The position numbers were made by a program, and so were the translations under genes. DNA of 64,000 bases from a virus, in UHGV virus genome UHGV-0277313; one strand, given 5' to 3'. Within the stretch, counting starts at the first letter, position 1, and the number at the start of each line of letters is the position of its first letter. Positions 11,489 to 51,832 of this stretch are shown here, in pieces. The notes under the pieces were generated by a model. The model was not told where the DNA came from. It did no database searches and worked only from the letters and a program-made list of their open reading frames with translations.

Positions 11489-13876
11489 ATGTCTGATCTA
11501 GTTTTTCAAGATTTAATTTCTAAAGATCCTAGCGTTCTTGTATTGTTCGATAAATTTGATTTTGATGATGTGAAAAAATCCAAAGCATTTACATCATCAG
11601 CAGCACGTGGGATTTTAAAGGATATTTATAGTCGCGGTTTTACGAATAATTCCGTCTGTGCGATGTATGTTAAAAATACAGCAGTGTTTGATTTCGATGG
11701 TAATTTAGAAGTATATCGTTTACCAAATGAAAAAGCAAAATCAAAAGGTCAGATTATTGTTAATGAGAAGGATAAAGCCGATTTTAAAAATAGACTTATT
11801 GCGCTATTAATGAGAAACGACTTCAAGTCTTTAATTATTTTAGGGAGAGAAGTTGCGAATGTACTGCAAGAGTTTGGATTTTATGGAGCTGGAAGTTGTT
11901 TAGATACAGCTAAAGAGATTAATTTTGTAGGCAATAAAGTTTTAACAATTGAAACTGTCAGTCCTTTAGAATATTCTTTAGGTTTGACTGAAAGAAATAA
12001 GTTCATTTCAGCAATAGATCAGATTTATTCGACACAGTATGAAGTCACATCTATTGATAATGCAAGTTACGTTGATATTGATACGTTTGCAGGGTATCTT
12101 CGTAAACTTGAAATATTATACGATAATAAAAAGATTGACTGTATGGGTTTTGACTATGAGACGAATTGTTCAGAGTGGTCAGTTCCGTGGGCGAAATTAG
12201 TTGCAGTTTCTTGTTCTGATCGTATTACAAATCACGCTTTTTCGTGTGCGTTGTATCATCCTGAAAAGATTATGCACCCTCGCAAAAAGACTTTGTTAAA
12301 GTGGTTGTTTGCACACATCTTTACAGAAACATTGACAACAAATGAAGAGTATATCAAGCTTGCAAAGAAGTTAGAGCATTTTTATAAAGATGTTTATCCT
12401 AGAATTGAGGAGTTACCGTATAAAGAAGTTCTGAATGACGATGAGTATTTTGTTCTAGAATCTTTGCCTGATTTGGTAAAAGTGTTTAAGAAAGCTGCAA
12501 AAAAGGCTTTTGAAGAAAAGACAAAAGCACATGAAGAATATAAAAAACTTATTTTTGAAGCGGTTAAACGTCTGACGTTTTTAATAAACGATACAGAGTA
12601 TCCGAAAAAGTTGCATGATTTTTATTATTTGCTAGATAAGGTTTTATCAAAAATTCCTGTTGTAGGACACAATATTAAGTTCGATATTGGTTGGTGTGCA
12701 AACATGTGTATTGGTTTGCGTAATTTACGTGTTAAAGCCGATACATTTGGTCAAGCTGTTGCTGTAATGGGGCAAAATTTAGGGACAAAATTAAATCTAG
12801 AATCGTTATCAGTTGACCTTTTAGGTGTTGAGAATAAATGGAAATCAGCATTTCATGCATCACCTCGTTTAGGTAAAGGATCAAAGTTACGTTTTGATCG
12901 TGTTCCTTTAAAGTTGTTAGGACCTTATTCTGCAGCGGATGCTATTACAACAGATTTATTGGATGAATACTTCCAAAAGAAAATGGAAGGTCAACCTATG
13001 AATCTTGTTGAAAAGGAACAAAACATTGCTATTGTCATGTTTTCTTTAGGTGAAGTTCATGGTTTTTCTATACATCCTGAAACAGAAACAAAATTGTATA
13101 AATGGGTTAACAATGGGTTAAGAGATTTACGTAATCAATTAGTTCAGCTTCCGACAGTAAAACGTTTTGTTGAAGATAGAAAGCAAGAGTTGCCTGAAAA
13201 GGAAGCAAGTTTATTTGAATTTAATACAAACACTTCTGGTGCGCAGTCACATAATGCAGCTGTTTTATTCAGGAAAGAATACTTTGGTCTAAAGTCATTA
13301 ACATCAACAGATTCAGGTTATCCTTCTGCTGATGCAGATACTTTAAAAGAGATAAAGAAACAATTGAGTGTTTCAATTAAACAATTTGAAACTGCTAAAT
13401 TAGGTGAAAAAGTTTATTGTGATAATAATGGTGAATTAATTACAAATAAAAATATTGATCGTTTTAAAGAAGCATGTACTTTTTGCGATAACTTGATTAA
13501 AACATCAGGGTTTAGTCAGTTAAACAATATGTATTATAAAGTTTCGTATGATGAGAAAAATGATCGACCTTTAGATAAATTTATTGCAGTATTTAAATTG
13601 GTAGGTGCAACAAAAACAGGACGATTGTCTTCACGTTTTCATTTAGCACCTAAAACAGGCGGCGTGCGATATGTTTATTGTTCAGCGTGGTCAAAAGATA
13701 ATATTCGTAAATATCAGTTTTCGCATGAACCAGGTGTTCGTTATGAACCTTTGTATGGCTTAATGGATGTAGTTTATGAAGACGGTACAACAGAAAAAGT
13801 GTCATACGGTGATTTATTAAATCGTGGTTATACAAAAGACGAAATAGAATCTATTTATAAAGCTAATCAAGTGTAG
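11489..13876 (+). CDS. family-A DNA polymerase, N-terminal half (3'-5' exonuclease plus N-terminal polymerase region ending at the TGRLSS motif)
   Basis: ExoI FDYETN, ExoII VGHNIKFDIGW and ExoIII YSAADAITT are present. The gene ends with KTGRLSSRF...; palm motifs A, B and C are absent. Confidence 0.8.
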   Translation: MSDLVFQDLISKDPSVLVLFDKFDFDDVKKSKAFTSSAARGILKDIYSRGFTNNSVCAMYVKNTAVFDFDGNLEVYRLPNEKAKSKGQIIVNEKDKADFKNRLIALLMRNDFKSLIILGREVANVLQEFGFYGAGSCLDTAKEINFVGNKVLTIETVSPLEYSLGLTERNKFISAIDQIYSTQYEVTSIDNASYVDIDTFAGYLRKLEILYDNKKIDCMGFDYETNCSEWSVPWAKLVAVSCSDRITNHAFSCALYHPEKIMHPRKKTLLKWLFAHIFTETLTTNEEYIKLAKKLEHFYKDVYPRIEELPYKEVLNDDEYFVLESLPDLVKVFKKAAKKAFEEKTKAHEEYKKLIFEAVKRLTFLINDTEYPKKLHDFYYLLDKVLSKIPVVGHNIKFDIGWCANMCIGLRNLRVKADTFGQAVAVMGQNLGTKLNLESLSVDLLGVENKWKSAFHASPRLGKGSKLRFDRVPLKLLGPYSAADAITTDLLDEYFQKKMEGQPMNLVEKEQNIAIVMFSLGEVHGFSIHPETETKLYKWVNNGLRDLRNQLVQLPTVKRFVEDRKQELPEKEASLFEFNTNTSGAQSHNAAVLFRKEYFGLKSLTSTDSGYPSADADTLKEIKKQLSVSIKQFETAKLGEKVYCDNNGELITNKNIDRFKEACTFCDNLIKTSGFSQLNNMYYKVSYDEKNDRPLDKFIAVFKLVGATKTGRLSSRFHLAPKTGGVRYVYCSAWSKDNIRKYQFSHEPGVRYEPLYGLMDVVYEDGTTEKVSYGDLLNRGYTKDEIESIYKANQV

Positions 13877-29905: not shown

Positions 29906-32281
29906 CTATTCTTCACGTTTACCATAAAAACCGTTGCCGACAAAATACTTGCTTTTGAAATCCATATTTGGGCAAGGATCTTCAAATTCAAGCTTCAGTG
30001 AAATAAGTTGTGTCGGGACTTCAATAGGTAACTCTTCACGTTCTTCTGGAGGGATAGGGTCACCTTCTTTCATCTCAAGTATTTTGTAGTCGTATGCTTC
30101 ATCAAGTTCACGTTTTAAATAATCCCAATTGCAGTTGCCTCCCTTGATATTTAAAATGAATTTACCATCCTTCTCTTCAAAAGATTTAATATCCATTTCA
30201 CGTCCCCATGATTGACCTAAACCAAAATCAATGAACATTTTGTTTCCGTTCATCCAATCATAAATAACATTTGGTACCGTACCTGCATGAAATTGACAAA
30301 TCTTAAAAACTGGAATTAATTCACCTGGGTATATGTCAAGATATGTTGAATCATGAACACCACCAATCATTACTGATTGTAAATCGTGCATCAACATCTC
30401 TTCTGCAATATGTGTACCTGCAATCCATGCCATACGGCTAGCGGATGAATTGTGTACAAAAACACCAGCTTCTAATGCGAAATTGTGTGTATTTTCATTG
30501 TTTTCAACTTCAATATCATATACTGAAATTTTGTTTGGTAGTTTAATTACTTCAACAGATGTAACTTTATGGTTGTTGAATAATTCTGCTACTAAACGTT
30601 CATAATTTTCTTTTGAAAAGTGCGGAACACTTGAAGCTCTAGCTCCTTCATTAATATAAGACAATCTGTATTCTTCAAAAATATTTTCGAAAGAAGAATC
30701 TAGTAATATATTTTTACCAAGTTTTTCAATAATTTTTAAAGAAAGTTTTTTGAACTTATAAAAAGTTGTATTCTTTCCACATTTTCTGATATTATTTTTC
30801 ATATGCTGTATCTTTTCTAGATCATTACCTTTCCAAATTTTATTTATTGTTTTTCTGGCAGATTCAGACAATTGTTCTTTAGACATACAGAATGCATTTC
30901 CATATGTTTCAATGCGTTTTTTTACCAAAGCTTTAACTGCTTCTCTTTGGTTAAAATCCCAATCTTTATAAAGTTCTTTTCTTTTTTTATTTTTTTCAGC
31001 CATTAATTTAGATTGTTTTTCAGAATGTTCTTGTGTTAAAAAATGTTTCCAAATATTGTTTTCACGTTTGCCTTCTCGTATTTCACGTACACGTTTTTGA
31101 GTGTCAATACTACGTTGTTTTGAAGTATATTTCAAACCCATTTGACGTAAATATTCGTGAACAGATACACCTGTCAGGTCAGCATGTCTTTTAATAGTAG
31201 ACATTACAAGAGATGAATGATATTTTATATGTTCTGCCTTATCCATAATAAGTAAATTATCAGGGTTGTTGTTTAATTTGTTGAAATCTTTGTGATGTAC
31301 TGCTTCATTTTTTTCAATAGTACGATCATAATATTTACTTACTATACGATGTACAGAGGCCCAAGGTTTTGTAGTTAAATCATTTCTTTTAACATATTTA
31401 TACCCTAACTTGTCATATTTTGTATAACAAGGCATTAAGCTTTCATTATTTTTTAAATCGATAGCATGTTTATATGTTCCATCCCTTAACATAAACTGGT
31501 GTTCAGGTGTGCATGTAATAATTTCGCCAGAATCTAATGTAACTTTACAAATTGTGTCAGTTTCTCCAGATTTAAAAGCGTTAATAATTTTGCCAGGTAT
31601 AATTTTACCATCATTACAACAAGATAAAACATACTTATTTTCAAAATTATTCACAAGGTTTTGAATTTCAACAACACTGCCATCTAATAAAGGTATTTTA
31701 GTATCACCAACAAAACATTGGATCCCACTATTCTGGCTTGCATTCATAGCATGATTCAACAACTTCCTGTTGCTTTTAGTGTCAGGCAACATTGCATCTG
31801 GTAACGGTCTAGTACAACCAAATACGTCAACAATATATCCATGCTCACGGGCGAACTTGTGTTGATATTCAACGTATGTTTTAATACCAGGGTATGCCCC
31901 CATCATTTTATCAATAGTTTCTTGAGCTTCTTCGACAGTGCATCCCCACTCTTTTGAAAAGTTGTAGGCTGATTTTCCATAGAGTAGACCAAACATTGTT
32001 GACTTCGCCTTTGAACGCAACCCAGAGTGGTGTTCTTTAATTTCTTTATCACTCATGTTTTTTAGTTCAGGAAAAATATTTCTGGCCGTATTACAATGCA
32101 GATCAGCACCTGACAGTAGTACATCTCGAAGTGTTGGATCACAACTAATAGCTGAAAAAATTCGAATTTCCAAAGTACTGTAGTCGTACGAAACTATTAT
32201 ACCACCACCGTTGTGTCTTGTCAAGCTTTTTATTTTCTTTTTTGCAAAATTTTTATTTTTTATTTCCATTTTTCTAGCCAA
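29906..32281 (-). CDS. family-A DNA polymerase, C-terminal half (motifs A, B, C) interrupted by an intein
   Basis: Motif A DYSTLEIRIF, motif B KSTMFGLLYG and motif C VHDS are present. An insertion from Cys189 to ...VHN is followed by SSAS. Confidence 0.8.
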   Translation of the reverse strand: MARKMEIKNKNFAKKKIKSLTRHNGGGIIVSYDYSTLEIRIFSAISCDPTLRDVLLSGADLHCNTARNIFPELKNMSDKEIKEHHSGLRSKAKSTMFGLLYGKSAYNFSKEWGCTVEEAQETIDKMMGAYPGIKTYVEYQHKFAREHGYIVDVFGCTRPLPDAMLPDTKSNRKLLNHAMNASQNSGIQCFVGDTKIPLLDGSVVEIQNLVNNFENKYVLSCCNDGKIIPGKIINAFKSGETDTICKVTLDSGEIITCTPEHQFMLRDGTYKHAIDLKNNESLMPCYTKYDKLGYKYVKRNDLTTKPWASVHRIVSKYYDRTIEKNEAVHHKDFNKLNNNPDNLLIMDKAEHIKYHSSLVMSTIKRHADLTGVSVHEYLRQMGLKYTSKQRSIDTQKRVREIREGKRENNIWKHFLTQEHSEKQSKLMAEKNKKRKELYKDWDFNQREAVKALVKKRIETYGNAFCMSKEQLSESARKTINKIWKGNDLEKIQHMKNNIRKCGKNTTFYKFKKLSLKIIEKLGKNILLDSSFENIFEEYRLSYINEGARASSVPHFSKENYERLVAELFNNHKVTSVEVIKLPNKISVYDIEVENNENTHNFALEAGVFVHNSSASRMAWIAGTHIAEEMLMHDLQSVMIGGVHDSTYLDIYPGELIPVFKICQFHAGTVPNVIYDWMNGNKMFIDFGLGQSWGREMDIKSFEEKDGKFILNIKGGNCNWDYLKRELDEAYDYKILEMKEGDPIPPEEREELPIEVPTQLISLKLEFEDPCPNMDFKSKYFVGNGFYGKREE
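30449..31717 (-). mobile_element. intein with HNH homing-endonuclease domain inside the PolA C-half
   Basis: The insertion starts CFVGDTKIPLLDGS and ends FVHN followed by S. It contains the HNH motif VHHKDFNKLNNNPDNLLIMDKAEHIKYH. Host motif B precedes the insertion and motif C follows it. Confidence 0.65.
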
Positions 32282-38539: not shown

Positions 38540-39040
38540 TTAAATTTTATCTAAAACGTCTTCATAGCTTTTAAAAACAATATCGCTTAGTGCATCTTTT
38601 GCGTTGTAGTATGTTTTGCAATAGTCATGCTCAAAGTCAATTGGTTCATTTATTTGATGTTTGCAAAAATCTTTTGTTTTGGGTTCGTATAGAAGAAAAG
38701 TTGTAGGAAGTCTAACAACTAACATTGGAGGATTTTGTTCAGTTGCACTTTTCCATGCAAAGAATTGTACTATAAATCCTTTGTATTGTTGTTTGATAAA
38801 AGAAGACATTTCATTAAATAAATCATAGTCTGTATCAAAATAAATTGTTGTACTATCAGTGTCTTCAGTAAAGCTTTTGATTGTTTCAAAATTAGCGAAA
38901 TTGTCTTCAAAATTTAGTTCGTTAGTTAAATTGTCTTTAGAAATAGTTAGACAGATAGCTTTACCGTTAATCGCATAGTAGCTAAACAGATAATAGACGT
39001 CATCAAATTTTGATTCATTGCAAACTTTAAAATATTCCAT
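38540..39040 (-). CDS. paralog family protein 1 of 7
   Basis: C-terminal ..YEDVLDKI and shared internal blocks. Confidence 0.55.
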   Translation of the reverse strand: MEYFKVCNESKFDDVYYLFSYYAINGKAICLTISKDNLTNELNFEDNFANFETIKSFTEDTDSTTIYFDTDYDLFNEMSSFIKQQYKGFIVQFFAWKSATEQNPPMLVVRLPTTFLLYEPKTKDFCKHQINEPIDFEHDYCKTYYNAKDALSDIVFKSYEDVLDKI

Positions 39041-39049
39041 AAAAATCCT

Positions 39050-39529
39050 TTAAATTTCATTAAGAACATCTTGATAGCTGAACATTTCAGGTGATTTCAA
39101 TGCATCAGAAACAGTATCATAGTATTCAATGATTTTAAAATTTTCTGTATTCTTTCCAGACCATAGCGGTTTGGCATCAAAATCATTTGCTAATCTATAT
39201 ACTTGAACAGCATCAATGTCAATTATAATTATTGAAGTATGCAACAAACCAATCACAGTGTGTCCGGTATTTTTATCAAGTAATGTGCAAATTACAGGTT
39301 CAATATTATTTTCCTCTAAAGTATCGTCTAAATGTGACAGCATTTCTTTCAAGGAATTGTTGTGAATAATTTTATATTCTTTATTTGGAATTTTAGAAGG
39401 AAATATATATAGACGATTGTCGTCTATATAAAGTGCTTGAACTGTTGTTGTATCTTCTGTTTTATTAAACACTTCTAAAACATAAATAATATTTTTTGAG
39501 AAGATAATATCAAATTGTTTTATTTGCAT
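39050..39529 (-). CDS. paralog family protein 2 of 7
   Basis: C-terminal ..YQDVLNEI. Confidence 0.55.
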   Translation of the reverse strand: MQIKQFDIIFSKNIIYVLEVFNKTEDTTTVQALYIDDNRLYIFPSKIPNKEYKIIHNNSLKEMLSHLDDTLEENNIEPVICTLLDKNTGHTVIGLLHTSIIIIDIDAVQVYRLANDFDAKPLWSGKNTENFKIIEYYDTVSDALKSPEMFSYQDVLNEI

Positions 39530-39541
39530 GTCCTGTTCCTT

Positions 39542-40054
39542 TTAGATTTCGTTTAAAATGTCAATATAATTTTTAAAGATAGGATCTTGAAAGGCGTCTT
39601 CTATGTTTGTATAAAGTTTAACATAATTATTTTCATCTTGTAATTTAGATTCAGCGCTTGTTGAACTTAAGACTTCGAACTTTTTACTGTTTGGTGAATA
39701 AATTAAATATTGGTCATCAATGTTAATTAACAATTTTGGTTTACTGTATGCACTATCACAAAATACAAATACGTCAGAAGTATTAAGCTTGAATATTCTT
39801 TTATACGATTGTTGTATGTCATTCAACATTTCAACATCTGTATCAAAATCTGTTTTGACATAATCGTCCAAATGTTCGTCAGTAAAGTTTTTAATAATCC
39901 AGATGTTAGCATGGTGATAATCACGATTATTTGTTGTAAGAGAGAAGTTTAATGTGTTGTTAACTTCAACACCTTCAATAACATAAAATGTAATGAATGT
40001 GTCAAGTACATCAATAGTTTGTCTTGTTTTTGAATACTTACAATATTTTGTCAT
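39542..40054 (-). CDS. paralog family protein 3 of 7
   Basis: N-terminus MTKYCKYSKTRQT, C-terminus FQDPIFKNYIDILNEI. Confidence 0.6.
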   Translation of the reverse strand: MTKYCKYSKTRQTIDVLDTFITFYVIEGVEVNNTLNFSLTTNNRDYHHANIWIIKNFTDEHLDDYVKTDFDTDVEMLNDIQQSYKRIFKLNTSDVFVFCDSAYSKPKLLINIDDQYLIYSPNSKKFEVLSSTSAESKLQDENNYVKLYTNIEDAFQDPIFKNYIDILNEI

Positions 40055-40080
40055 TGTTATATTCCTATTTAAATTTCGTT
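40017..40080. repeat. 64-bp repeat, copy A (identical to 41567..41630)
   Basis: gtttgtcttgtttttgaatacttacaatattttgtcattgttatattcctatttaaatttcgtt spans the gene start, the intergenic spacer and the neighbouring gene's end. Confidence 0.85.
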
Positions 40081-40584
40081 AAGTACATCAACATAGTTTT
40101 TAAAAATAGGATCGTTGAAAGCTTGCAGAATATCACTGTATTCTCGTATGTAATAATCTTCATTTTGAAGTTTCATGTTTAAAAGATATCGTGACGTAAA
40201 AAAGATTGTTTGTTTTTTAGGTGTATAAACTAAAGAATTGTTTTTATAATTTATAGCAATATTTGGTATACTTTTAAGTGATTCAGCATATACCATAATG
40301 TTGTTTGTATCAATATTATTTGCTTTCTTTATGGAATTTTCAAGATCTTCGAACATTTTGATGTCATTGTCAAAATCAACCTTCTGTAAATTTTCATTTG
40401 GAGTTTTAGGGTCGAAATTAAAACTTTGCGAAATGAGTAAATCATAGTAGTTATCTTTTTTATAATAAGTCAATAAAGTTTGAATTACACTACATTCGTT
40501 GTTCGTTGAAATACAATAATAGCTTTCATACATATCAACAAATTGTAAATGCTCTTCTCGATAATATTTATAAAAATTGCTCAT
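40069..40584 (-). CDS. paralog family protein 4 of 7
   Basis: C-terminal FNDPIFKNYVDVLNEI. Confidence 0.6.
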   Translation of the reverse strand: MSNFYKYYREEHLQFVDMYESYYCISTNNECSVIQTLLTYYKKDNYYDLLISQSFNFDPKTPNENLQKVDFDNDIKMFEDLENSIKKANNIDTNNIMVYAESLKSIPNIAINYKNNSLVYTPKKQTIFFTSRYLLNMKLQNEDYYIREYSDILQAFNDPIFKNYVDVLNEI

Positions 40585-40593
40585 GTCAAACCT

Positions 40594-41100
40594 TTAAATT
40601 TCATCTAAAACATTTATATAACTTAAAAAGATTGGATCTTTAAAAGCATCTGAAATATCACTATATGTCTTAAAATAATCATATTGTTTATTGATTTCTT
40701 CTCGAATGTTGGCAACAAAATCCAAAATGATATTTTTATAAATTGGGGAGTATATCAAAATATCATTTTCAATAGGTATAATGATTTTAGGAGTTTCTTT
40801 CAGATCTGCCATTTGCCAGACATATACTTCATAATTCTTTATTTTATACATATCTGTATATAAACGTTGTATATCTTCAAATAATTCGACATCACTTGAA
40901 AAGTTGATTCTTTTATAATCATTATCTAAACTATTAAGAATTTGTATGTTGCTGCTAGTGTTGACAACATACCCATTAGAACCGTCAACGTATTGTGAAC
41001 ATACAAAAGCAAAACATTGTTTATCAATCACATAAAAATTTCTTACGTGATGTCCGCTTTTATTTGTATTCTCAAAAACATATTTACAAAATTTTGTCAT
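40594..41100 (-). CDS. paralog family protein 5 of 7
   Basis: C-terminal FKDPIFLSYINVLDEI. Confidence 0.6.
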   Translation of the reverse strand: MTKFCKYVFENTNKSGHHVRNFYVIDKQCFAFVCSQYVDGSNGYVVNTSSNIQILNSLDNDYKRINFSSDVELFEDIQRLYTDMYKIKNYEVYVWQMADLKETPKIIIPIENDILIYSPIYKNIILDFVANIREEINKQYDYFKTYSDISDAFKDPIFLSYINVLDEI

Positions 41101-41604
41101 TTAAATCTCGTTTAATACGTCAATGTAATTTGTGAATATTAAATCTTTTAAAGCAGTTTCAACAAAGTTGTATTTTTGATGATAGGCAATCTCATTTTCA
41201 TCAAACCATTGATCAACGACATATCCACTGACAGCATTAACATCGTCTGTTGCAGGTGTATATATAATAGCGTCACTTTGAATGAACATTATAAGTTTAG
41301 GTTTAGAATAGATATCATTGAATTGAATTACTAAATTCTCAACTGTCTTCTTTTCATAAAAGCTTTTATATTGATTTTGTAAATCAGAAAACAACTCTAT
41401 TGCATTATTAAAATCTGTTTTGTTTTTTTCATCTAAAGAGACAATAATTTCATCCGCATTTCCTGAAGTAATATTATATGTAGGAAAGACACGCTCAACA
41501 GAAAATTGTACTAAAATATATTTTTTATTAATAATATAATAGGCTGTATAATGTTTTCCTGTATTTGTTTGTCTTGTTTTTGAATACTTACAATATTTTG
41601 TCAT
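41101..41604 (-). CDS. paralog family protein 6 of 7
   Basis: N-terminus MTKYCKYSKTRQT, C-terminus ..NYIDVLNEI. Confidence 0.6.
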   Translation of the reverse strand: MTKYCKYSKTRQTNTGKHYTAYYIINKKYILVQFSVERVFPTYNITSGNADEIIVSLDEKNKTDFNNAIELFSDLQNQYKSFYEKKTVENLVIQFNDIYSKPKLIMFIQSDAIIYTPATDDVNAVSGYVVDQWFDENEIAYHQKYNFVETALKDLIFTNYIDVLNEI

Positions 41605-41630
41605 TGTTATATTCCTATTTAAATTTCGTT
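41567..41630. repeat. 64-bp repeat, copy B
   Basis: Identical to copy A when read by eye. Confidence 0.85.
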
Positions 41631-42137
41631 TAAAACATCAATGTAATTTATAATAGAAGGGTCTTTGAAAGCTTCAGCAACTGTTTCATAACGTTTCAAA
41701 TATACAGCATCTTCTGTCATAAATTTAGGTATTTTGGTTGCTTTTATACTATTAACAGAATCATTCTCAAATGAATAGTAAAAACTATAATCAGTATCAT
41801 TTATTGCAAATAATATGGCAGGACGCTTGTTAATATCGGTTAAAATAACAAAAATTTGTAAAGGTAAATTTTCGAAATGTTTTTTAAACCCATTGACAAA
41901 GTCTTTAAACAATTCCTCAACATTATCAAACATGATGGTTTTATAATCTAAAAATGAAAGAGGTACATCTAGTGTAGGTGATGTATGTACGTCATATTTT
42001 AAATAATCATCTTTTAAATACTTTGTAAAAACAGATATAAATGCCGTTTTGTTAACTATGTATTTATTATATTCAGATTCTTCTTTAAATCGTGACGAAG
42101 TTGCTTCTTCATAATATTTAAAATATAGATTATTCAT
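41619..42137 (-). CDS. paralog family protein 7 of 7
   Basis: C-terminal FKDPSIINYIDVLNEI. Confidence 0.6.
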   Translation of the reverse strand: MNNLYFKYYEEATSSRFKEESEYNKYIVNKTAFISVFTKYLKDDYLKYDVHTSPTLDVPLSFLDYKTIMFDNVEELFKDFVNGFKKHFENLPLQIFVILTDINKRPAILFAINDTDYSFYYSFENDSVNSIKATKIPKFMTEDAVYLKRYETVAEAFKDPSIINYIDVLNEI

Positions 42138-47453: not shown

Positions 47454-47834
47454 ATGGAATATAGTTATTTGCTTTGTGAAGTAGGTACTCAAGATAGAGT
47501 TATATTTTTTAAGACTTCAAGAAAGTTCAGAAAAACAAATGTCGTAACTACAGTAAACGAGTTTATGGATTTATGTGAATTGGAATTACAACAAAATAAT
47601 GTAATAAAAGTTCATGGGTACTATACAAAAAGAACACATGTTATTCATTATTATATAGACAACACAACTGTTTATACTGAAAGATCTTTGACTGTTACAG
47701 TTGGCTGGAAAACTTTACGTGATAAGTTTAAAAGAAGATTTGGATGTGATGTAGAGATACTTCATAAAAAATATTGTTCGTACATAATTGTCCAAAATGC
47801 TAGTATTGGAAGTAATCTATTGAAAGATATTTAA
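47454..47834 (+). CDS. hypothetical protein, tandem paralog A
   Basis: About 65% identical to 47852..48235. Confidence 0.55.
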   Translation: MEYSYLLCEVGTQDRVIFFKTSRKFRKTNVVTTVNEFMDLCELELQQNNVIKVHGYYTKRTHVIHYYIDNTTVYTERSLTVTVGWKTLRDKFKRRFGCDVEILHKKYCSYIIVQNASIGSNLLKDI

Positions 47835-47851
47835 ATAGTGTTGAGGTTTTA

Positions 47852-48235
47852 ATGGAATATTGTTTTTTGTTTGGTGAAGTAAGAGGAACTCAAGATAAAT
47901 TTATGTTTTTTAAATCTTCATGTAAGTTTAAAGAAACAAATATTGCCAACACAGTAAACGAGTTTATGAATTTATGTGAACTGGCATTGCAACAGAATAA
48001 TGTAATAAAAATTTATGGACATTATACAAAAAAGTCACATGTTACTCATTTTTATGCAGAAAGCACAACTATTTATACAGAAAAACCTCAACATGTCTAT
48101 GTTGGTTGGAAAGTTTTACGGGATAAGTTTAAAAGAAGGTTCGGGAGAGATGTAGAAATACTTCATGAAAAATATTATGGATCAATCATTGTTAAAAATA
48201 CTAATATTGGAAGTAATTTATTAAAAGATATTTAA
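47852..48235 (+). CDS. hypothetical protein, tandem paralog B
   Basis: Shares NVIK(V/I)(H/Y)G(Y/H)YTK and WK.LRDKFKRRFG blocks with paralog A. Confidence 0.55.
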   Translation: MEYCFLFGEVRGTQDKFMFFKSSCKFKETNIANTVNEFMNLCELALQQNNVIKIYGHYTKKSHVTHFYAESTTIYTEKPQHVYVGWKVLRDKFKRRFGRDVEILHEKYYGSIIVKNTNIGSNLLKDI

Positions 48236-48240
48236 ATAGC

Positions 48241-48459
48241 GTGGAGACTTTAATGAACGATTATGATGTTAAAGAGAAGTTGTTGTTGATATTGATTCTA
48301 ATTATTATCATCGCATTGCCTGCCTCGTGCAGTTATGATATAGGTAAAATTGAAGGTAAAGCTGAAACGGTCCAAGAACTGTGTTCAAAAACTGAATACG
48401 ATTTCTGTGTAAAAGTACAACAGAAACCTATATATACTCTTAAAAATGATATTGACTAA
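48241..48459 (+). CDS. small membrane/secreted protein
   Basis: Hydrophobic LLLILILIIIIALPASC segment. Confidence 0.4.
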   Translation: METLMNDYDVKEKLLLILILIIIIALPASCSYDIGKIEGKAETVQELCSKTEYDFCVKVQQKPIYTLKNDID

Positions 48460-48851
48460 ATGAAAGAAACAATATGTTCCAAAACCGAGAAGAATTAAAA
48501 GAAGACTTCGATGAAGTTCCTGTGAACGAAAATCAAATTTGTTACCCTGATGAAGATTGTTTGGAAATCTTAAAGGAAAATGAAGATTGAATAGACATAG
48601 CTTTTTTAAATTATTTCCAATTCTATACGACGTAAAATGATTTGTAAAATGGTGGAAAAAAGCATTTAGTTGAAAAGTGTTATATCAGATTTGGAAGAAT
48701 TCCTAAAAATGAAAAAAGTGGAATTCATTTAGGTAAAGATATACGTTTTGAAAATGGGGTTTCTGTTTGGGATGCTGTAAAATTAAAGGACGGTTATCAT
48801 CTTGTTGCTCCTCTTCAAGGAAATACTTGCACTTATACCGATTTTATAAAA

Positions 48852-49046
48852 ATGGCGTTTCCTCAAGAGTGGTATGGAGATTTCGTTTCACATGAACCAA
48901 TTTATGTCGTTTCTGGTGATGAAGTCGGTCGTGGAAGTGATAATGAACCTTTACTGAAAAATATAAAAATAATTGAAGAATTACCTTTTGATTATTTTAA
49001 CTATGGCCCCACATATGAAAAGTATATGCCAAAGGAAAAAGAATGA
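48852..49046 (+). CDS. hypothetical protein; the frame is open for a further 68 codons upstream (see findings)
   Basis: ATG ORF. The upstream in-frame translation looks protein-like but has no ATG. Confidence 0.4.
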   Translation: MAFPQEWYGDFVSHEPIYVVSGDEVGRGSDNEPLLKNIKIIEELPFDYFNYGPTYEKYMPKEKE

Positions 49047-49530
49047 ATGATTGTTGGTAAAGGAAAATTTTAAAGTCCATGAAATGTTTATAAAAAAATT
49101 CGTGAAGTTGAAAAATTGTGTGCACTTTAATAATAGGTAATGATAAGTGGTGCTTTGCGATAAAAGAAATGCTTTATGATAAAAAATAAAGAAAGATTAT
49201 AATAAAAGATAACTATAATAATGGTAAAAGAAAAAGAGAGTATTATAATGGGATGAATGAAAGTTAATGTTGTGTGAGTGATGATTAGGATGGGGTGATT
49301 TTGGTATGCAGGGAAAATGATGTATGAAGTAGTGAAGATGAAGACAGTAAGAGATGAAAGATATTAGTCTGAAGAAAGGGTAAGATGATTGGGGAAATGA
49401 GTGTGGGGGTTATGTGGTGGCAAAAGGTGAAGAAGATGAAGAATATGAATAACGGCGATGTTTATGGTGTTGCATGAAAATTGGATGAATCGAAGAGTAT
49501 TGTGTATTCTATCTCGTGCCTGTTTTTCGG

Positions 49531-49559
49531 TATAACTATATTATCGAAAGGGAATAGAG
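49531..49559 (+). repeat. repeat unit ataactat(att)atcgaaagggaatagag, copy 1
   Basis: Second copy at 49743..49765. Confidence 0.6.
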
Positions 49560-49713
49560 CAGATAGGAAAACGGCAAGCGGGGCGCAAGCCCCTATACCG
49601 AAAGCCTTATTGACTATATAGGGATATATAGTAGAGTTAGGTATAAGGAAATCAGTATAACAGGCTTGATAGGTAGTTAATACCGAAAAACCCGCTTGCC
49701 GTTAAAATTCCTG

Positions 49714-49742
49714 TTGACAAGTTTCTGATTTTTTGATAGTAT
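49714..49742 (+). promoter_or_regulatory. sigma70-like promoter TTGACA-N17-TAGTAT
   Basis: Predicts a transcript starting at repeat copy 2. Confidence 0.45.
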
Positions 49743-49765
49743 ATAACTATCGAAAGGGAATAGAG
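49743..49765 (+). repeat. repeat unit, copy 2
   Basis: ataactatcgaaagggaatagag. Confidence 0.6.
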
Positions 49766-50549
49766 GATAAACAGGGATTTAAGGTATCAGAGGAAACTGG
49801 TATCATAGGTAAAGCTTTTATTAAGCATTGTTTGACATATAAGACAGTGTTTAATAAAAGCTTTATTTGTTAATGGTACGGTATCCGATACCTGATAAAC
49901 AGTTAAGCTGTTGTATCACTTGTTAATAAAGAGTGGTATAGCGGGTTAACGACCTTTAATCAGTCATTATAAAGTGGTAAAGCAAAGTAATGACGAAATG
50001 ATTAAAGGAATTATCAGGTTCACGTGTGAAAAAGAAAGCACGGCGGAACTATATACAGAATAAATAAAGTGAATGAAATGTCGTTTCAATTTTGTTGAGT
50101 TTAGAAACGACTGAAAACTTTAATCTTAAAATCAATTAAGGTTAAAGTGAAACAATCTATATTATTTAATATAGATTTAAACAGTTAAGGCAAGACTGAA
50201 AAGAAATGCCTTGATAGGTAATAACTCAACGGGATCAAATTCCCTTAATGAAAATAGATGAATTAAAAATAGTTTGTTTATTTTTCGTTAAGGGTGAAAA
50301 TACGGTGGTGAGCCAATCGACAAAAAGTTTCACGACCGTAAAACAAACCGTCTGAAATGGTTTGGATTTGTCTAGGTCAGTTTACTGATTTGAACTCACT
50401 CCTGCTTTAAGTGTATGTGAGAAGTAGGCTGTGGAACAAATCTGTATTGAAATAGATTACTCTAAGTCATTTCAGATATTTTAAGAACAGATTGGAATAA
50501 ACTAAAATAGAATGAAATGGTTTATTCCGAAACAAGAAAGGAAAAGAAA

Positions 50550-50963
50550 ATGATTAGAAACTTCACGCCGCATAAAATCAATCTGTTCGCCGAAGACGGC
50601 AGAATATTGAAAGTATTCGAGCCGGAAGGGCTTGCAAGGGCGGAACAAAAGGCCATCATCGTTGACGAAATTCAATTCGGGAACGACATTGTTCCCGTCA
50701 AAAAGATGATTTTCGGGAGCGTCGAAGGACTTCCCGAAACGGCGGGAGAATACGATAAATTTATCGTGTCGTCCATCGCCGCACAGGCGGCGATGGAGAC
50801 GAACCATCCGTTGAAAAATCAGCTCTTGGTCGTTGCAGACCCTGTTCGCAACGAAGACGGACAAATTATAGGCTGTAAAGCCTTTTCGACTTTCCGAGAT
50901 GAGAATGATCTCGGCGAGATTATGAGCTTGGCTAACAAGCTCAACGACAAATACGCTCGGTAA
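50550..50963 (+). CDS. hypothetical protein (first gene of the higher-GC module)
   Basis: SD AAGGAAA upstream of MIRNF. Confidence 0.55.
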   Translation: MIRNFTPHKINLFAEDGRILKVFEPEGLARAEQKAIIVDEIQFGNDIVPVKKMIFGSVEGLPETAGEYDKFIVSSIAAQAAMETNHPLKNQLLVVADPVRNEDGQIIGCKAFSTFRDENDLGEIMSLANKLNDKYAR

Positions 50964-50970
50964 TATTAGA

Positions 50971-51010
50971 TTTAACAAGGTGGGAGTTGTCCAGATTCCC
51001 ACCCTTTAAA
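50971..51010 (+). promoter_or_regulatory. conserved intergenic stem-loop element, copy 1
   Basis: TTTAACAAG, then stem ggtggga ... tcccacc, then CTTTAAA. Confidence 0.55.
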
Positions 51011-51054
51011 TCTATTCCACAGTGGGGTGGATCCAACCAGAAAGGGAAAATAAT

Positions 51055-51348
51055 ATGACAATCAAAAAAGAAAAAAATTTCACCGTCACCGTAACTTACT
51101 TCAATGATTATAAAGGGGAATGGGTGACTGTTCCCCTGTCCGAAGCCCCGGACGAGTTGATAAACCCGTCTGCAACCGTGGCAGATATTGCCAATATGCA
51201 CGCTGAAATGCGTGCAAGTTTAAAGGCGTTGTACGACGCCTACGATGAAATGGAGCAAATAGAGTATCAGGAATGGTACTCTGAACAACAGGCGGCGGCG
51301 CAGAAAGCCGCCGAAATAGAAATGGCGTACAAACAAAGGTACGCCTAA
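51055..51348 (+). CDS. hypothetical protein
   Basis: RBS AGGGAAAA. Confidence 0.5.
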   Translation: MTIKKEKNFTVTVTYFNDYKGEWVTVPLSEAPDELINPSATVADIANMHAEMRASLKALYDAYDEMEQIEYQEWYSEQQAAAQKAAEIEMAYKQRYA

Positions 51349-51398
51349 ATGTTAATGATAGGACAAGATTGGACAGAAATTGTTTAGTCTTGCCCTAT

Positions 51399-51449
51399 CT
51401 AGTTTCATTTAGTGTAACTAGTTTTTATAATTGCACTAAATGAAACTAG
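51399..51449 (+). promoter_or_regulatory. 16-bp perfect inverted repeat (operator-like) flanking a TATAAT hexamer
   Basis: ctagtttcatttagtg - N19 containing TATAAT - cactaaatgaaactag. Confidence 0.55.
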
Positions 51450-51484
51450 ATCAGAGTGATCTAGTACAGCAAGGAGTTGCAAAA

Positions 51485-51832
51485 ATGAAAGCACAAAATT
51501 ACACATATAGAACGCCGTTCGGAGACGAACTGGCGATCATAACAGGAAAATCAGCAGCACGGGGACGTGATAACCTTCGCAACACCCGCAAAGCCCTAGC
51601 AGCTGCAAACGATATCATATCCACTTTACAAGCGGATGTTAAAGAAAGGCACGCTTGTACAGTTCGTTTGCGTCTTCGCAAGAACAAAGAAATTGCCAGT
51701 TTGTTGGCAGAGGTTGCCAGTTTGAAAGCTGAAAATGAAGCTTTGAAAGATGCGGCGGAGATGTGGCAAACTATTGCCAAATCGAGTGTGACGGCATCTG
51801 GAGAGCTGTTGGATGCTCTCGAAAATGACTAG
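51485..51832 (+). CDS. hypothetical coiled-coil protein
   Basis: SD AAGGAG. LKAENEALKD coiled coil. Confidence 0.55.
   Translation: MKAQNYTYRTPFGDELAIITGKSAARGRDNLRNTRKALAAANDIISTLQADVKERHACTVRLRLRKNKEIASLLAEVASLKAENEALKDAAEMWQTIAKSSVTASGELLDALEND

Follow-up and report, generated by a model that had tools for sequence, protein, structure and literature searches.

Two kinds of described system bear on the locus reported here. Rho loads on RNA that is rich in cytosine, poor in guanine and unstructured, and the rut sites that it uses share these properties; large structured RNAs such as GOLLD and ROOL are known to be carried by phages, RNAs of this kind being rare and poorly understood. The locus lies in the UHGV virus genome UHGV-0277313, of which a stretch of 64,000 nucleotides (the window) was analysed; the window is part of a 276,920-bp metagenomic scaffold (ENA ERZ28615576) of a large gut phage that encodes DNA polymerase, SbcC and NrdD homologues. 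Its subject is a cytosine-poor tract within the largest gap of the window that is free of open reading frames (ORFs), at positions 49047-50516 (about 1.45 kb), flanked by genes that all lie on the + strand. A preliminary description of the DNA had drawn attention to 49141-49500. The tract resembles the inverse of a rut site combined with an extreme form of sense-strand purine loading, and it belongs to no curated family. Taken alone it is a compositional curiosity, real and extreme, yet variable and dispensable in relatives. It serves, however, as a signpost to the largest noncoding gap of this uncultivated gut phage of about 277 kb and to the predicted RNA locus that adjoins it at 49462-50530. 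As judged from modelled structure and comparison of relatives, the conserved functional element is this RNA locus, which the preliminary description did not flag; it is conserved in at least two huge-phage lineages with genomes of 277-314 kb and is the more interesting result.

An exact count over 49141-49500 gives 144 A, 107 G, 97 T and 12 C in 360 nt. The C content is therefore 3.3%, compared with 13.7% in the whole window (binomial P(<=12/360) = 2.2e-11), where the preliminary description had estimated about 10 of 360, under 3%, against about 15%; those figures were slightly off, and the extremity they were meant to convey is real. Its statement that the strand asymmetry lies beyond chance is borne out by the binomial probability and by the rank of this stretch as the unique C minimum among all 360-nt windows (mean 49.4 C, standard deviation 12.3), counts of 14 C or fewer being confined to windows with starts at 49013-49160. 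The same stretch holds the window's longest run without C (49214-49308, 95 nt), and maximal-segment analysis delimits a tract of 478 nt (Table 1) with a score of 28.2 versus 11.4 for the next best segment. The GC content of 49141-49500 is ordinary (33%), the GC skew is +0.80 and purines make up 70% of the sequence, compared with 54% in the window, so that the anomaly consists in G standing in place of C. The RNA of the + strand would contain about 30% G, 40% A, 27% U and 3% C, and G reaches 35-39 per 100 nt within the tract. The remaining intergenic gaps of the window contain 8-20% C and none falls below 8%, indicating that poverty in C is not general to the intergenic DNA of this phage. The stretch was correctly described as noncoding with stops in all frames: the three + frames hold 20, 7 and 12 stop codons, and the longest open run is 34 codons. 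The general tendency that comes closest is the transcription-direction rule of Szybalski, or purine loading. The sense strand of the window has more G than C and is 54% purine, and the tract, at 70%, is the extreme of this tendency on the same strand as the flanking genes. The tract nevertheless lies far outside the distribution of the window (z about -3; score 28 versus 11), and since it is untranslated, codon-level explanations do not apply to it.

The tract had also been described as dominated by GATGAAG-like motifs, of which a modest enrichment stands and the dominance does not. Relative to dinucleotide-preserving shuffles, GATGAA occurs 5 times versus 1.3 expected (P 0.01) and GATGA 7 times versus 2.9, GAAGATGAAGA is present twice, and most of the excess of ATG and TGA is explained by dinucleotide content, disappearing in the shuffles. 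On the same basis GGA is depleted (5 versus 11.5, P 0.002), AGGA occurs once versus 3.4 times, and GGAG and GAGG do not occur at all, with 2.5 of each expected. Scans for direct, inverted and tandem repeats together with self-BLAST found no direct-repeat families, iterons or regularly spaced motifs in the tract; the longest self-match is 11 nt, a single tandem repeat is present (Table 1), and the content of repeated k-mers is not above that of shuffles for k=4-6. The lag-3 autocorrelation is 0.40 versus about 0.32, and a pattern of G at phase 1 is seen at 49381-49440. No G-quadruplex motif is present in the tract. A folding scan with 639 windows, each of 200 nt, places those at 49201 and 49301 lowest in foldability on both strands; the minus strand of the tract, with a minimum free energy (MFE) of about -4 kcal/mol per 200 nt, has less structure than any other part of the window. 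The fold z of the tract is -1.45, and 8 of 100 shuffles reach folds equally good, so that its folding energy does not stand clear below that of shuffled sequence. The most foldable + strand windows of the same scan, 49701 and 49801, lie next to the tract.

Related contigs were reached via homologues of the flanking proteins, and a second clade (clade B) via exact-pattern scans; the resulting sample falls into two clades that are clearly distinct, with about five sub-lineages. The close relatives L003 (LR756497.1, 309 kb), L004, L005 (297 kb), L007 and L008, which are 92-98% identical in nucleotide sequence, all retain the C-poor tract in a gap of about 1.5 kb. The tract is the fastest-evolving and most indel-prone part of this gap (+9, -9, -1 and -9 nt in L004/L007). 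It evolves about three times faster than the RNA locus, its identity to the window being 82% in L024 and 89% in L007 compared with 94% and 95% for the adjacent RNA element, and it has more indel columns per nt. Despite this turnover, C stays at 4-9 per approximately 245 nt (2-4%) in every lineage that keeps the tract, at up to 18% divergence. Larger events have also struck it: L007 carries a 240-nt insertion after 49093 (L007 954-1191), L024/L025 have 930 nt (L024 7187-8116) in place of 49098-49212, and L026 has about 600 nt in place of approximately 49330-49453, including a TnpB remnant (L026 2996-3370) of the IS605 family with a Cas12f1-like TNB domain (E 1.6e-5, just under the Pfam cutoff). 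These three independent insertions or replacements mark the tract as an insertion hotspot. Clade B is represented by a phage of about 313 kb (L015/L018, L019, L020) whose flanking genes are 70-80% identical in nucleotide sequence and in which homologues of the upstream 128-aa gene and the downstream 148-aa gene are absent. At the position of the tract it has 1.45 kb of non-homologous ORF-free DNA, where the C count per 360 nt reaches its minimum for the 14-kb locus (17 C; GC skew 0.5-0.7), and a short C-poor (GGATTGT)x4 patch lies directly 5' of the RNA element. The 5' boundary of conservation is nearly coincident in L026 (49454) and clade B (49462). Conservation in related phages, which the preliminary description had proposed as a check, therefore gives a divided answer: the tract is kept in all close relatives, yet it is the fastest-evolving part of the gap, and clade B, which keeps the adjacent element, lacks a homologue of it.

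The evidence for the adjoining RNA comes from a consensus structure derived from an alignment of eight sequences (A1). Compensatory double changes are found at 17 pairs, five of them consecutive in one helix, versus 0-3 in slid controls, and 98.9% of cells are paired versus 38-44% when the partners are slid by 1-3 columns. The predicted folding is strong throughout: z is -5 for 49500-49730, and for 49700-50520 the MFE is -265 kcal/mol versus -160 for shuffles (z = -18). Over 49462-50528, which clade B conserves at 80% from end to end, the + strand has an MFE of -353 kcal/mol with 58 G-U pairs and the minus strand -244, and this far stronger fold of the + strand suggests a structure formed by the RNA of that strand. 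In conserved structure, compensatory changes and strand-specific folding, 49462-50530 has, as modelled, the characteristics of a structured non-coding RNA. Small ORFs over the element use different frames in the two clades across identical nucleotides, which favours an RNA over a protein. Like GOLLD and ROOL, the element is phage-borne and noncoding, extends over several hundred to a thousand nt and shows many helices and covariation. It differs from them, from HEARO and from all other families of Rfam 15 in giving no match even at E<=10, and it differs from GOLLD and ROOL in having no tRNA genes nearby. Searches of 48900-50600 against Rfam 15 at E<=10 returned only chance-level models of microRNAs and small nucleolar RNAs (E 0.03-7), and at the gathering score the whole window has 0 matches. 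The lack of an Rfam match implies that the element would represent a new family of large structured phage RNAs. To our knowledge, GOLLD, ROOL and HEARO have not been described with a C-free tract upstream, and searches of the literature on structured RNAs of huge or jumbo phages turned up nothing specific to this locus. A new large structured RNA in huge phages would merit experimental follow-up.

Within the element lie the window's only two copies of a 17-mer, ATCGAAAGGGAATAGAG, the second of which follows a promoter-like site, P2, whose hexamers are kept in clade B (TTGACA/TAATAT) with a varying spacer. The -10 box of P2 also takes part in a hairpin with a compensatory change, so that the promoter and RNA-hairpin readings of this segment conflict. 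The presence of this internal promoter-like site and of a terminator-like hairpin farther downstream suggests that the element may be a cluster of RNAs and not a single transcript.

For the tract itself, a purine-rich untranslated RNA is the most plausible reading. The preliminary description had listed a purine-rich noncoding RNA among its options; the tract is indeed noncoding and kept in close relatives, although the conserved functional element is the RNA downstream of it. More precisely, and with somewhat less than even confidence, we propose that the tract is an untranslated leader or spacer that is transcribed by read-through from the genes upstream of it and in which composition matters rather than sequence. 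This proposal is favoured because C stays low despite the turnover of the sequence and because clade B has a non-homologous C-poor patch. No terminator-like site on the + strand was found by consensus matching between the upstream genes and 49814, so read-through would be the simplest expectation, and a + strand transcript from the upstream genes would cross the tract as an untranslated leader or 3' untranslated region. The near-absence of C would preclude stable G-C helices and leave the tract single-stranded, with little disturbance of the downstream fold. As there would be no C-rich, G-poor site for the loading of Rho, the untranslated transcript could continue into the RNA locus, which presupposes a host with Rho, and the scarcity of Shine-Dalgarno-like GGA and GGAG motifs would recruit few ribosomes. 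The exact sequence could meanwhile drift freely by substitutions, slippage-type indels of 8-9 nt and insertions. That the tract is transcribed, that its composition is selected and that Rho or folding interference acts as the selective agent are points that we infer. Modelled as a 321-nt leader, the tract has a self-folding energy of -28 kcal/mol versus -66 +/- 16 for random phage segments and forms 17 cross-pairs with the RNA locus versus 41 +/- 18 for controls, 95% of the locus pairs being kept versus 88%. If its composition is selected, the tract would be a natural untranslated leader whose make-up guards against Rho, ribosomes and misfolding.

The comparison with rut sites can be made in both directions. 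The tract shares with them its length, its lack of structure and an extreme C/G ratio, and its minus strand, with a C/G ratio of about 8.9, looks like a very strong rut; its + strand is the exact opposite (C/G 0.11), and it is not conserved in the sister clade. We know of no curated class of natural 'anti-rut' leaders. Several observations weigh against an untranslated leader of selected composition. There is no conserved promoter upstream, the sole candidate being a sigma-70-like site at 49176-49203 (10 of 12 matches) that has a 4-nt spacer deletion in L007 and is missing in L024. The gain in avoided folding interference is modest, since about 5 of 54 control leaders equal the tract. Only three substitutions to C and three from C have occurred in the tract, too few to decide between selection and neutrality. 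In L026 the insertion bearing the TnpB remnant truncates the tract and lies between its remainder and the RNA locus. Finally, clade B has no homologue of the tract, which makes the tract dispensable or replaceable, and the approximately 700 nt nearest the RNA locus in that clade have ordinary C (13-19%).

A wider version of the proposal, which we consider rather unlikely, joins the tract and the adjacent multi-hairpin element into one undescribed large noncoding RNA locus of about 1.1-1.5 kb in gut huge phages. The tract would then be a composition-selected, permanently single-stranded arm without Rho loading and with few ribosomes, whose part would be either to bring RNA polymerase as far as the structured RNA or to hold a long stretch of unpaired purines next to it. 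That two clades have C-poor but non-homologous DNA upstream of the element would then be explained by selection acting on nothing but base composition.

The explanation to be weighed most carefully against a composition-defined leader is that the tract is neutral hypervariable DNA, an indel-tolerant zone between the upstream gene and the RNA locus, whose composition is a by-product of slippage and expansion of C-free motifs (GATGAAG, GAA/GAT) together with sense-strand purine loading; we regard this as nearly as likely as the leader, if on balance doubtful. It accounts well for the rapid, indel-rich evolution of the tract, with its 8-9-nt indels at repeated motifs, for the three independent insertions or replacements in L007, L024 and L026, for the dispensability of the tract in clade B (which has no homologue) and in L026, and for the several metagenome contigs that break at or near it, such as L008 at 49500. 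The periodicity at lag 3 and the AAGATGAAG repeat suggest slippage of the triplet type, the sense strand has G in excess of C across the window, and the substitutions involving C are compatible with drift. Against slippage as the source of the composition stand the weak internal repetition (no excess over shuffles at k=4-6, no significant self-alignment above 11 nt) and the depletion of GGA (P 0.002), which slippage does not explain. A neutral origin is also hard to square with C still at 2-4% after up to 18% divergence, with the independent non-homologous C-poor patch at the same intergenic position in clade B, and with the lack of any comparably C-poor intergenic gap elsewhere in the window. 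If the tract were instead coding or recently coding, as micropeptides, as a recoded gene with TGA or TAG read as sense, or as a decayed acidic tail of the upstream gene, its composition would follow from codons such as GAA, GAT and AAG, which contain no C. The lag-3 autocorrelation, the G-at-phase-1 pattern at 49381-49440, the MMYEV ORF whose frame is kept in four lineages, and the variable, often acidic C-terminal tails of homologues of the upstream protein would all agree with this. We judge it very unlikely, as long standard-code ORFs occur throughout the window and there are no suppressor tRNAs, leaving no sign of recoding, TAA stops occur in every frame, and the lineages differ by -1 and other indels that are not multiples of 3. 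Read from the alignment of the window with L024, approximately 6 nonsynonymous codon changes in the MMYEV ORF stand against 1 synonymous change. The only ORF reported by the gene caller in the tract (30 aa, 49385-49477) is broken by the -1 indel in L004 and L007, and a minus-strand ORF of 92 aa in L024 is not conserved in the window. A decayed acidic C-terminal tail is unlikely too, the homologues of the upstream protein being mostly 115-145 aa, with no long acidic tail and none with a tail of about 120 aa.

The RNA of the minus strand could act as a rut-like one-way insulator that ends antisense transcripts from the RNA locus before they reach the upstream genes. That RNA is 30% C and 3% G (C/G 107/12) and nearly without structure, and by composition, the property that was compared, it qualifies as a rut site (at least about 80 nt, C above G, little structure); promoter-like sites on the minus strand are present downstream, for example at 50188-50161. 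The number of promoter-like sites does not exceed that in shuffles (12 versus 13.2), the flanking genes all lie on the + strand, and clade B and L026 do without the tract, which makes an insulator improbable. Hardly better is the prospect of an R-loop-forming element or replication origin, in which a G-rich transcript would hybridise to the pyrimidine-rich template and prime or open the DNA. Origins of this type include that of ColE1 with its RNA II and oriF and oriG of phage T4, and hybrids of purine RNA with pyrimidine DNA are unusually stable. The likeness lies in the G-rich non-template strand (GC skew +0.80, 70% purines, 35-39 G per 100 nt), which predicts a stable RNA:DNA hybrid, and in the long structured RNA that adjoins the tract; a GGGG-N10-GGGGG pattern of the initiation-zone type is also present in the window. 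The tract differs from the ColE1 and T4 origins in having no conserved upstream promoter, in the loss of the G-cluster pattern in L004, L007 and L024, and in being dispensable in relatives, with no homologue in clade B and an interruption in L026. It also has no G-quadruplex motif. The cumulative GC skew, which the preliminary description had suggested as a test for an origin, follows gene orientation and has no inflection of the origin type at the tract, no initiator gene was found nearby and the ORFs flanking the tract have no Pfam replication domains. The suggestion of an origin-like or iteron region likewise found no support in the repeats: like iteron origins the tract is noncoding and AT-rich and has a recurring short motif, and it departs from them in having no direct repeats of 17-22 bp, no regular spacing and no conservation of the motif, GATGAA being present in 5, 3, 3 and 1 copies in the window, L004, L007 and L024. 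The same irregular spacing and loss of copies across lineages, together with the absence of direct-repeat families, speak against the protein-binding array that had also been suggested. An array of GATGAA-type sites, or an RNA that acts as a sponge for CsrA, Hfq or ribosomes, is the least probable of the explanations considered here. It would draw on the excess of GATGAA and GATGA over shuffles and on the two copies of GAAGATGAAGA. A CsrA sponge, however, should be enriched in the GGA motifs that are depleted here, runs of at least three A-R-N triplets, as expected for Hfq, comprise 20 triplets versus 18 +/- 6.7 in shuffles (P 0.40), and the Shine-Dalgarno cores GGAG and GAGG that could capture ribosomes are absent.

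The features of the locus are collected in Table 1.

Table 1. Positions of features in and around the cytosine-poor tract and the adjoining RNA locus (window coordinates)
Feature	Position	Strand	Remarks
Upstream gene	48663..49046	+	128 aa in relatives; stop codon abuts the C-poor tract
Maximal C-poor tract	49031..49508	+	17 C in 478 nt; 70% purine; ORF-free; near-unfoldable; includes 49141-49500
Insertion/replacement hotspot	49093..49212		5' part of the tract; events of L007 and L024/L025
Tract core	49213..49461	+	Recognisable in the most divergent lineage that keeps the tract (L024/L025), 82% identical
Sole tandem repeat, AAGATGAAG x2.9 (9-mer)	49424..49449	+	9-nt slippage-type deletion in L004, L007 and L024
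Predicted structured RNA locus, about 1.07 kb	49462..50530	+	34 helices, 284 pairs, many G-U; no Rfam match
17-mer ATCGAAAGGGAATAGAG, copy 1	49543..49559	+	Invariant; 3' half of a conserved hairpin
Promoter-like site P2, sigma-70/sigma-A type	49714..49742	+	TTGACA, 17-nt spacer, TG-extended TAGTAT; consensus match, putative function
17-mer ATCGAAAGGGAATAGAG, copy 2	49749..49765	+	Starts about 7 nt past the -10 box of P2
Terminator-like hairpin	49814..49871	+	At least 20 pairs, then a T-rich run; first + strand site past the upstream genes; consensus match
Downstream ORF	50517..50963	+	148 aa; absent from clade B

The upstream gene has lost its start codon in the window: the ATG of L003, L005 and L007 is AAG at approximately 48661-48663, leaving a 64-aa ORF (48852-49046). 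The assemblies L022 and L023 are 100% identical to the window across 47801-51500, and for this reason the loss is probably a real mutation and not an assembly error. The absence of the downstream 148-aa ORF from clade B indicates that it is not tied to the RNA locus. A scan of the window for tRNA and transfer-messenger RNA genes gave none. The GC content is about 0.27-0.30 at 44-49 kb and rises to 0.38-0.44 at 50-64 kb, with the step at approximately 50000-51000, at the noncoding locus, which thus divides two compositionally distinct gene modules.

Searches beyond the related contigs added no further instance of the locus. A search of INPHARED phage DNA with 48600-50600 gave no match and phage proteins match only distantly, the phage being without a close relative among deposited phage genomes; searches of IMG/VR with the upstream protein and with a 127-aa protein encoded farther upstream found no related locus, and an exact scan of IMG/VR for the 24-mer AACGGCAAGCGGGGCGCAAGCCCC and a scan of Joint Genome Institute metagenomes for the two-copy 17-mer pattern were also without a match. 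The five matches to a loose 17-mer pattern (L012-L014, L016, L017) are unrelated and due to chance, and in L001, L006, L010/L011 and L028/L029 the gap is missing and distant homologues of the flanking genes stand in unrelated surroundings. Among the related contigs, L008 starts at window position 49500, L020 starts 354 nt upstream of the element, and L007 and L023 also break at or near the tract, which is consistent with strain-level heterogeneity breaking the assemblies. The clade B contigs L019 and L020 (GTDB genome_contigs) are binned in metagenome-assembled genomes of Melainabacteria and Erysipelotrichaceae; these labels probably reflect mis-binning and are unusable as evidence of the host.

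Elsewhere in the window, two adjacent paralogous genes on the + strand (47454-48235), coding for 126 and 127 aa and 67% identical, have no Pfam match, and their homologues were found only in this group of huge phages. Seven tandem paralogous genes on the minus strand (38540-42137) encode proteins of 159-172 aa that are 16-28% identical to the first and share the C-terminal motif DAFKDPIF.NYIDVLNEI. Similarity to DNA polymerase is split over the distant ORFs 29906-32281 (-) and 11489-13876 (+). The one of 791 aa has polymerase similarity at residues ~15-186 and an HNH endonuclease-like segment at ~286-500, an arrangement that suggests an intein or the insertion of a mobile endonuclease.

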